Assembly (NCBI RefSeq): GCF_057098645.1
Contig: NZ_CM169472.1
Strand: one strand, 5' to 3'
Length of the DNA: 64,000 nucleotides
Shown here in pieces: positions 43,754 to 45,277 of the stretch (within the stretch, counting starts at the first letter, position 1; every line of letters begins with the position of its first letter). The notes beneath the pieces are model-generated. The model searched no databases. It saw only the letters and a program-made list of their open reading frames with translations, and was not told where the DNA came from. Made by a program: the position numbers and the translations under genes.

Positions 43754-43767
43754 TGGTGTCAGGGCAC

Positions 43768-43800
43768 CAAAAAAAACCGCCGAACATGTCGGCGGCTTTC
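43768..43800. terminator. Bidirectional intrinsic terminator between yfbM (+) and nuoN (-)
   Basis: AAAAAAAAA-CCGCCGA-ACATG-TCGGCGG-CTTTC: on the minus strand the hairpin is followed by a 9-U tract (end of the nuo operon); on the plus strand by CUUUCUG. Confidence 0.8.
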
Positions 43801-43819
43801 TGACTTACAAACTAACAGA

Positions 43820-45277
43820 TTACATCAGTGGCATTGCTAACCGCACAATGCTAATCAGCGGTTGTGGCCATACACCCAGCACCAGTACCAACAGTGCAGA
43901 GATCAGCACCACGATACCGCCCGCGCTGTACTGCCAGTTTGACGGCGCATCGCGACCCGGTTGTTCCGGGGCGTGAAGATACAGGCTCACCGCCACGCGC
44001 AGGTAGTAGTAGAGGCCGATTGCCGAACCGACAACCACGGCACCCACCAGCCACCACAAGTGTGCCTGGACACCGACCGCCAGCACGTAGAACTTACCGA
44101 TAAAGCCCAGCGTCATCGGGATACCGGCCAGAGACAGCATCATCACCGTCATCACTGCCGCGAGGATCGGACGATGCCAGAACAGACCGCGGTAAGAGAA
44201 CAGGGAATCAGCATCCGGGCCACGATACGGGCTGGACATCAGGCTGACCACGCCGAACGCGCCGAGGCTGCTGAACAGATAACCGGCCAGGTAAACCCCT
44301 ACCGCTTCCATCGACATCTCGCCAGTTTGCAGCGCAATCAGCGCCACCAGCAGATAGCCGAGGTGAGAGATAGATGAGTAACCGAGCAGACGTTTGATAT
44401 TGGTCTGGCTCAGCGCCATCAGGTTACCGAAGATGATGGAGGCAAAGGCGATAATCGCCAGCACCACACGAATCGCTTCGCTGTCACCCACCGGTGCGTA
44501 GAGGAACAGACGCATCACTACACCGAAGATAGCGATTTTGCTCGCCGTCGCCAGGAAAGTGGAAACCGGCGCAGGCGCGCCCTGGTATACGTCTGGCGTC
44601 CACAGGTGGAACGGCACCAGAGAGAGTTTGAAGCCGAGGCCAACAATCATCAGACCGAAACCTGCCAGCAACAGCGGCTCGTTGAGCATACCGTCGCCGA
44701 GGTTTTTACCCAGCGCGACAAACGACAGGTCGCCAGACTGCGCATACACCAGCGCCATACCGAACAGCAGGAAAGAAGACGCTGCGGCAGAAAGGATGGT
44801 GTATTTGATACTGGCTTCCAGCGAACGTTTCTGGCGGAAAGCGTAACCGACCAGGCCAAACAGCGGCAAAGAGATCAGTTCAATACCGAGGAACAGAGAC
44901 GCCAGATGGTTGGCATTCGCCAGCAGGATCCCGCCCAGGGCGGCAATTAACACCAACAGGTAGAACTCATCCTTGTTGTCGTTATAGCCTTCAAGCCACG
45001 GGTAGGCGAAAGTACAGGTGGCGAGGCTCGCCAACAATACCAGCCCGGTGTAAAGCATGGCGAAACCATCAACGCGCATCAGCGGCGTAACGTCCATAGC
45101 GCCCGCCTGGCCAACAAACCAGAGCGAAACCAGCGCCGCGTTAAGCCCAATAACCGAGAGCGTAGCGTTGAGGAAATGATTGCGTCGCCACGCAATGGAG
45201 AGCATCACAACCACCACCGTCAAGCCGACGATCAGCAACGGTAGCAGTGCGATCAGGTTTTGTGGAGTTATTGTCAT
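43820..45277 (-). CDS. nuoN: NADH:quinone oxidoreductase subunit N
   Basis: 485-aa polytopic antiporter-like [57 protein letters not shown]...; last gene of the nuo operon. Confidence 0.95.

Follow-up and report, generated by a model that had tools for sequence, protein, structure and literature searches.

The compact yfbM–nuoN junction of most Escherichia coli genomes carries a predicted one-sided intrinsic terminator of the nuo operon

Operons that end in a terminator and strain-specific islets lodged between core genes are familiar features, and the junction between yfbM and nuoN described here is known in kind. The closest described systems are canonical intrinsic terminators, symmetric bidirectional terminators between convergent genes, collision-type bidirectional terminators and, with respect to gene content, strain-specific islets. 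Collision-type bidirectional terminators were reportedly described with SEnd-seq by Ju et al. in 2019 (Ju, Li and Liu). Elements of this type between convergent E. coli gene pairs encode a hairpin, and the class was presented as unlike intrinsic terminators and as poor in either single direction (Wang et al. 2022, 10.1101/2022.10.23.513370). Literature searches for yfbN/O/P, for nuoN together with yfbM and for DUF1877 returned nothing on this particular junction. Our analysis concerned a stretch of 64,000 nucleotides (hereafter the window), of which 1071 bases were tested and matched E. coli O145 str. RM9872 (NZ_CP028379.1) at 100%. We consider it highly probable that the short spacer between the two genes holds a Rho-independent terminator of the nuoA-N operon, that its compact arrangement is the majority form in E. 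coli and probably the older one, and that a low-GC insert, present in K-12 and about 19% of genomes, cuts the U tract of this terminator from U8 to U5.

The open reading frame list placed yfbM on the plus strand at 43250–43753 (167 aa; stop TGA at 43751–43753) and nuoN on the minus strand at 43820–45277 (485 aa; stop TAA, read as TTA on the plus strand, at 43820–43822). YfbM belongs to the DUF1877 / YfbM family (Pfam PF08974, E = 4.7e-35), and a RefSeq record 100% identical to the window labels the same gene yfbM. NuoN was identified as the NCBIfam NF004439 equivalog (947.9 bits vs. a cut-off of 531), and its protein accession, WP_000156701.1, is common to K-12 and the RM9872-type record. According to the gene order in the BW25113 and RM9872 records, nuoN is the final gene of the nuoA-N operon. 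The two genes are thus convergent, and the spacer between their stops (43754–43819) measures exactly 66 bp, as an earlier sequence-only reading of this DNA had stated. The hairpin quoted in that reading, CCGCCGA-ACATG-TCGGCGG, is likewise present, at 43777–43795, 23 nt beyond the yfbM stop; its 7-bp stem (CCGCCGA/TCGGCGG) contains six G-C pairs and closes a 5-nt loop, with an estimated stability of about −11.7 kcal/mol. The adjoining run at 43769–43776 had been given as A9 and is in fact A8, although runs of A9 and A10 occur in other strains; on the minus strand it is the U8 of the nuo terminator. The spacer is also not filled by one hairpin, as had been proposed, because the fold contains a second, small and imperfect hairpin, TGGTGTCAGGGCACCA, directly 3' of the yfbM stop (43754–43769). 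This small hairpin has no U tract behind it on the plus strand. It is absent from K-12, lying within the part of the spacer that is missing there, but E. whittamii and other strains with the compact junction have versions of it that carry substitutions. On the nuoN side, a 3' UTR of 24 nt (43796–43819, minus strand) separates the stop from the terminator hairpin. The AGAAAG next to the hairpin in this UTR (complement of CTTTCT, 43796–43801) can pair with the U tract; seen from the plus strand, the same UTR bases give the hairpin its weak tail, CUUUCUGACUU.

On the nuo strand, the element agrees with a canonical intrinsic terminator in its 7-bp GC-rich stem, its 5-nt loop, its immediately adjoining U8 and its position 24 nt past the last stop of the operon, and also in the partly A-rich upstream AGAAAG that pairs with the U tract; no notable difference was found on this strand. 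The 66-nt spacer folded on the nuo strand at −25.7 kcal/mol (z = −4.55), with none of 200 shuffles as good, and the fold extended the stem through A-U and G-U pairs between AGAAAG and the U run to 13 pairs. Terminator strength was scored from the hairpin energy per length and a weighted T tail; the formula and its absolute threshold are reportedly those of d'Aubenton-Carafa et al. (1990). By this measure the nuo strand of the window scored +38, with a T-tail weight of 5.27. A strict scan of the 64-kb window, which demanded a perfect 6-bp GC-rich stem, a loop of 3–8 nt and at least six T in the next eight bases, found two sites, the nuoN-side hairpin being one of them, compared with 0.43 ± 0.59 in 100 dinucleotide shuffles.

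A general promoter and terminator scan of the window did not call the hairpin at 43777–43795, likely because A-U and G-U pairing lets the stem grow into the T run, with too few T remaining behind it. The miss was considered as evidence against a terminator and then dropped, since the fold shows the extended stem and the strict scan finds the site. The general scan seems to be blind wherever an A-rich upstream stretch lets a stem extend into its T run. A search of Rfam at a permissive E-value returned chance-level matches only, all far below the gathering cut-offs (ryfA, 17.9 vs. 80 bits; fluoride, 15.8 vs. 34 bits; SgrS, 13.5 vs. 37 bits). The other site of the strict scan, CAGGGC-GAAACTT-GCCCTG at 40719–40737 (region 40714–40745), immediately follows rbn. 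The minus strand, on which no gene converges, carries its T run (complement of ATTAAAAA), and its tail on the plus strand is TTATCG. This site is one-sided like that beside nuoN, but it faces away from its upstream gene.

The sequence-only reading had described the hairpin as a shared bidirectional terminator. The nuo half of this description was supported by the hairpin and its U8, whereas the yfbM half was not. Behind the stem on the yfbM strand, U occupies just four of the first eight bases (tail CUUUCUGA); the plus-strand tail CUUUCUGACUUACAA has a T-tail weight of only 1.79, so that a U tract is found on one side and not on both, and the score of −24 falls under the terminator threshold. 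The 66-nt spacer folded on the yfbM strand with z = −3.03, and the hairpin in a 46-nt context gave z = −1.74, which is unremarkable by itself. These sequence features predict strong termination of nuo and, at best, weak termination of yfbM, and instead of a "shared bidirectional terminator" the element would be better called an intrinsic terminator that serves the nuo operon on one side only.

A true bidirectional intrinsic terminator, in which the single hairpin efficiently ends both the nuo and the yfbM transcripts on its own, would suit a convergent gene pair with one strong hairpin between its members. The element is also nearly symmetric (A8-hairpin-CTTTCT on the plus strand, AGAAAG-hairpin-T8 on the minus strand), and a different allele at the same site, that of strain WL297, is fully so. 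There, the terminator (L003 7016–7046) is perfectly symmetric, A7-CCGCCGAAATCGGCGG-T7, and scores +35 on the plus strand and +41 on the nuo strand, which makes two-way termination at this place plausible. The present element resembles such symmetric terminators in having one hairpin between convergent genes and an A run on one side. It differs from them in that its yfbM-side T tract is just CTTTCT and the score is one-sided. The sub-threshold score and the ordinary fold of the plus-strand hairpin count against efficient termination of yfbM, as does the lack of a 3' end for K-12, which has an identical plus-strand tail, in the list of Adams et al. (2021; PMC7815308), although yfbP may be silent. 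Efficient intrinsic termination in both directions consequently appears improbable to us.

Alternatively, the hairpin could pause polymerases from both sides and head-on collisions could set both 3' ends, as in the collision-type class. The junction shares with those terminators a convergent pair and a hairpin in a short spacer; its predicted 3' ends would overlap by about 30 nt, and its weakly terminating plus strand faces a highly transcribed operon. Members of the class are, however, said not to resemble intrinsic terminators. The nuo strand here does resemble one closely, with its textbook hairpin and full U8, so that the property which sets the class apart is missing on one strand. We regard this explanation as rather unlikely for the junction as a whole, and prefer a one-sided intrinsic terminator of the nuo operon. 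According to this prediction, polymerase leaving nuoN would pass the stop, transcribe the 24-nt 3' UTR, the 7-bp hairpin (43795 to 43777) and the U8 (43776 to 43769), and the nuo transcript would be released near 43770, before antisense entry into yfbM. In the opposite direction, the hairpin would be followed only by a poor tail and should act at best as a weak terminator or pause site. What halts yfbM transcription may then be head-on encounters with nuo polymerases, which are far more numerous.

Alignment with K-12, proposed in the sequence-only reading, was carried out against the BW25113 locus. The genes named there for K-12 were correct, the order in BW25113 being yfbM, yfbN (minus strand), yfbO, yfbP and nuoN (minus strand), and K-12 does not share the 66-bp junction. 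Homology between the window and K-12 ends at 43754, the first base behind the yfbM stop, and restarts at 43772 inside the A run. Between these points, BLAST and the alignment showed a 17-bp segment in the window, GGTGTCAGGGCACCAAA (43755–43771), in place of 2561 bp carrying yfbN, yfbO and yfbP in K-12; there is no target duplication. The hairpin is kept in K-12 with G for A in the loop, and the 3' UTR on the nuoN side is identical. Before the hairpin, K-12 has only CAGAAAAA, which the nuo strand reads as U5 and then CUG. Since the right border of the insert falls inside the A/U run, the U tract of nuo was cut from U8 to U5, and the score of the K-12 nuo strand is +15.

The K-12 insert has a GC content of 0.34–0.46, compared with 0.55–0.61 in nuoN. 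Searches of its proteins in Pfam gave weak, sub-threshold UBA-like and TPR matches for YfbN and YfbP and nothing for YfbO, and PADLOC and NCBIfam returned no match for any of the three. A defence hotspot was considered and dropped, as PADLOC found no match for YfbM, YfbN, YfbO, YfbP or the WL297 proteins and NCBIfam nothing for them. Signs of mobility were sought as well; no integrase, tRNA or direct repeats were found, and all 1020 places in the E. coli collection were chromosomal. Presence or absence at a fixed site between core genes and a deviant, low-GC base composition (1015 of 5426 genomes) place yfbN-yfbO-yfbP (b2273–b2275) among the strain-specific islets, which it further resembles in the function-less annotation of its genes and in its decay (a gene remnant and IS insertions). 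It is unlike a clean islet in that 17 bp are replaced by 2561 bp and the borders are ragged. Such ragged borders suggest that whole alleles of the junction were swapped, probably through recombination within the core genes on either side.

An observation in its own right concerns the K-12 spacer between yfbM and yfbN (L001 6455–6710). This unannotated stretch contains the decayed C-terminal remnant, about 90 residues, of a SUKH-1-like gene of 191 aa. The remnant is frameshifted, spread over three frames and interrupted by stops, and the same gene is intact in WL297 (L003 5624–6199). Its presence indicates that an older arrangement preceded the K-12 insert, which arose from it by decay.

The distribution of the junction forms was counted over 5426 complete E. 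coli genomes. The compact, contiguous form, in a few cases with small insertions, was found in 4309 of them (79%), at identities from 95.5% to 100%. The K-12 insert occurred in 1015 (about 19%), always on the chromosome and in 985 cases at an identity of at least 99%. A WL297-type allele was present at a coverage of at least 80% in 14 genomes. The claim that this is a strain-variable insertion/deletion point was thereby confirmed, given 2561 bp in K-12 against 17 bp in the window, further alleles and IS insertions. The accompanying statement that yfbN-yfbP are absent holds as far as the window is concerned, in which these genes do not occur; the loss that it implied is reversed, with the compact form being so much the commoner. 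K-12 is thus not the species reference at this junction, as roughly four in five complete E. coli genomes are compact.

The compact form is the majority form, is found from one end of the identity range to the other and extends to other Escherichia species, and the insert is near-clonal and low in GC; together these features favour the compact form as the older one. In a comparison confined to Escherichia, the compact junction is therefore probably the older state in E. coli and the K-12 form derived. The converse would be that the compact junction is a deletion scar, left when most E. coli lost an insert from an ancestor with a yfbN-like gene. Two yfbN alleles with 70% protein identity do occupy the one site, one of them also in another Escherichia species, and, along with the decayed remnant of a further gene retained in K-12, they show that the inserts are old and decaying. 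Moreover, the adjacent yfbK and yfbL are likewise deleted or broken in the window. The breadth of the compact form, which accounts for 79% of genomes over the range of 95.5% to 100% identity and is also seen in E. whittamii, argues against such a scar, as do the near-clonality and low GC of the K-12 insert. The 17 compact-specific bp were also sought inside the K-12 and WL297 inserts and found in neither; the compact form is accordingly not a simple joining of insert borders. A deletion scar is in our judgement unlikely. The order of the two states is nevertheless only probable, as yfbN-like inserts that have diverged from one another share this site, including one in a different Escherichia species, and point to a polymorphism of long standing.

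The WL297 allele encodes the 191-aa protein, which weakly matches SUKH-1 (SMI1_KNR4), as well as a YfbN homologue with only 70% protein identity to K-12 YfbN. The nuoN 3' UTR of this allele is different, and its nuoN flank is 93.9% identical to the window; the whole region looks as if it had been imported from a divergent Escherichia lineage. In strain XJ6-3, an IS200C is inserted in the A run of the spacer (L005 2023–2732), within the same few bases as the right border of the K-12 insert, and the A run may be a preferred breakpoint. In UTME-12, yfbM is disrupted by ISEc22. A YfbM search of genome contigs returned four loci. E. whittamii and SCPM-O-B-8794, another Escherichia lineage, share the hairpin and have a compact junction, and Escherichia sp. 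MOD1-EC7003 has a left border of the WL297 type. The draft contig of E. albertii NBRC 107761 ends 14 bp past the yfbM stop (L006 6501–6515), too early to show the junction form, in a sequence, TGATGGCTGCGTGC, that already differs from E. coli; an assembly break at precisely this place may point to a repeat or an IS at the E. albertii junction.

Across 13 aligned Escherichia sequences, no base of the stem differed, whereas the loop position was A or G and the flanking spacer positions varied. Since the stem does not vary, it offers no covariation support, and its conservation may partly reflect a short divergence time. The run before the hairpin in the same sequences was A5, A6, A7, A8, A9 or A10. 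The insert border and homopolymer slippage would together account for this variation of the nuo U tract from U5 to U10.

Transcript data for K-12 bear on the consequence of the shortened tract. Adams et al. (2021; PMC7815308) reported a region of Rho termination at 2389543 on the minus strand, where the RNA runs antisense to yfbP some 500 nt beyond the nuoN stop, with upstream/downstream reads of 176/23 without bicyclomycin and 315/457 with it (Rho score 11.1, p = 2.9e-36). With coordinates converted in this analysis, the K-12 hairpin lies at approximately 2390005–2390023. The curated Term-seq list from the same study, which holds about 1000 dominant 3' ends per condition and is weak evidence on this point, contains none at 23895xx–23900xx on either strand. 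The K-12 data fit a leaky U5 terminator, with read-through followed by Rho termination, although the Rho-dependent minus-strand RNA could instead start inside yfbP. Tentatively, natural variation in the length of the nuo U tract (U5 in K-12 against U6 to U10 elsewhere in Escherichia) might matter for termination, such that the insert weakened the K-12 terminator and left Rho to end transcripts in antisense yfbP, while most wild E. coli would end them cleanly at U8; we put this forward as a possibility only, with the balance somewhat against it. If so, the 3' end of a much-studied respiratory operon would be atypical for the species in the laboratory strain, and the run length would set the amount of antisense transcription reaching yfbM. 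The reduction from U8 to U5 by the K-12 insert, with a Rho-dependent region downstream, offers a simple and testable case of an islet altering the end of a core operon. For a specialist, none of this would come as a surprise, and its usefulness is modest and mostly one of housekeeping.

A second indel lies next to this junction in the window (42120–43147), where yfbK, 1.7 kb long in K-12, is almost wholly gone. The neighbouring yfbL, annotated in RefSeq as a frameshifted M28 family peptidase, is a pseudogene that has lost about 326 bp from its interior. Within this part of the window, the segment 42252–42763 is only 81% identical to K-12, compared with 96–99% in its flanks, which suggests a divergent allele acquired via recombination.
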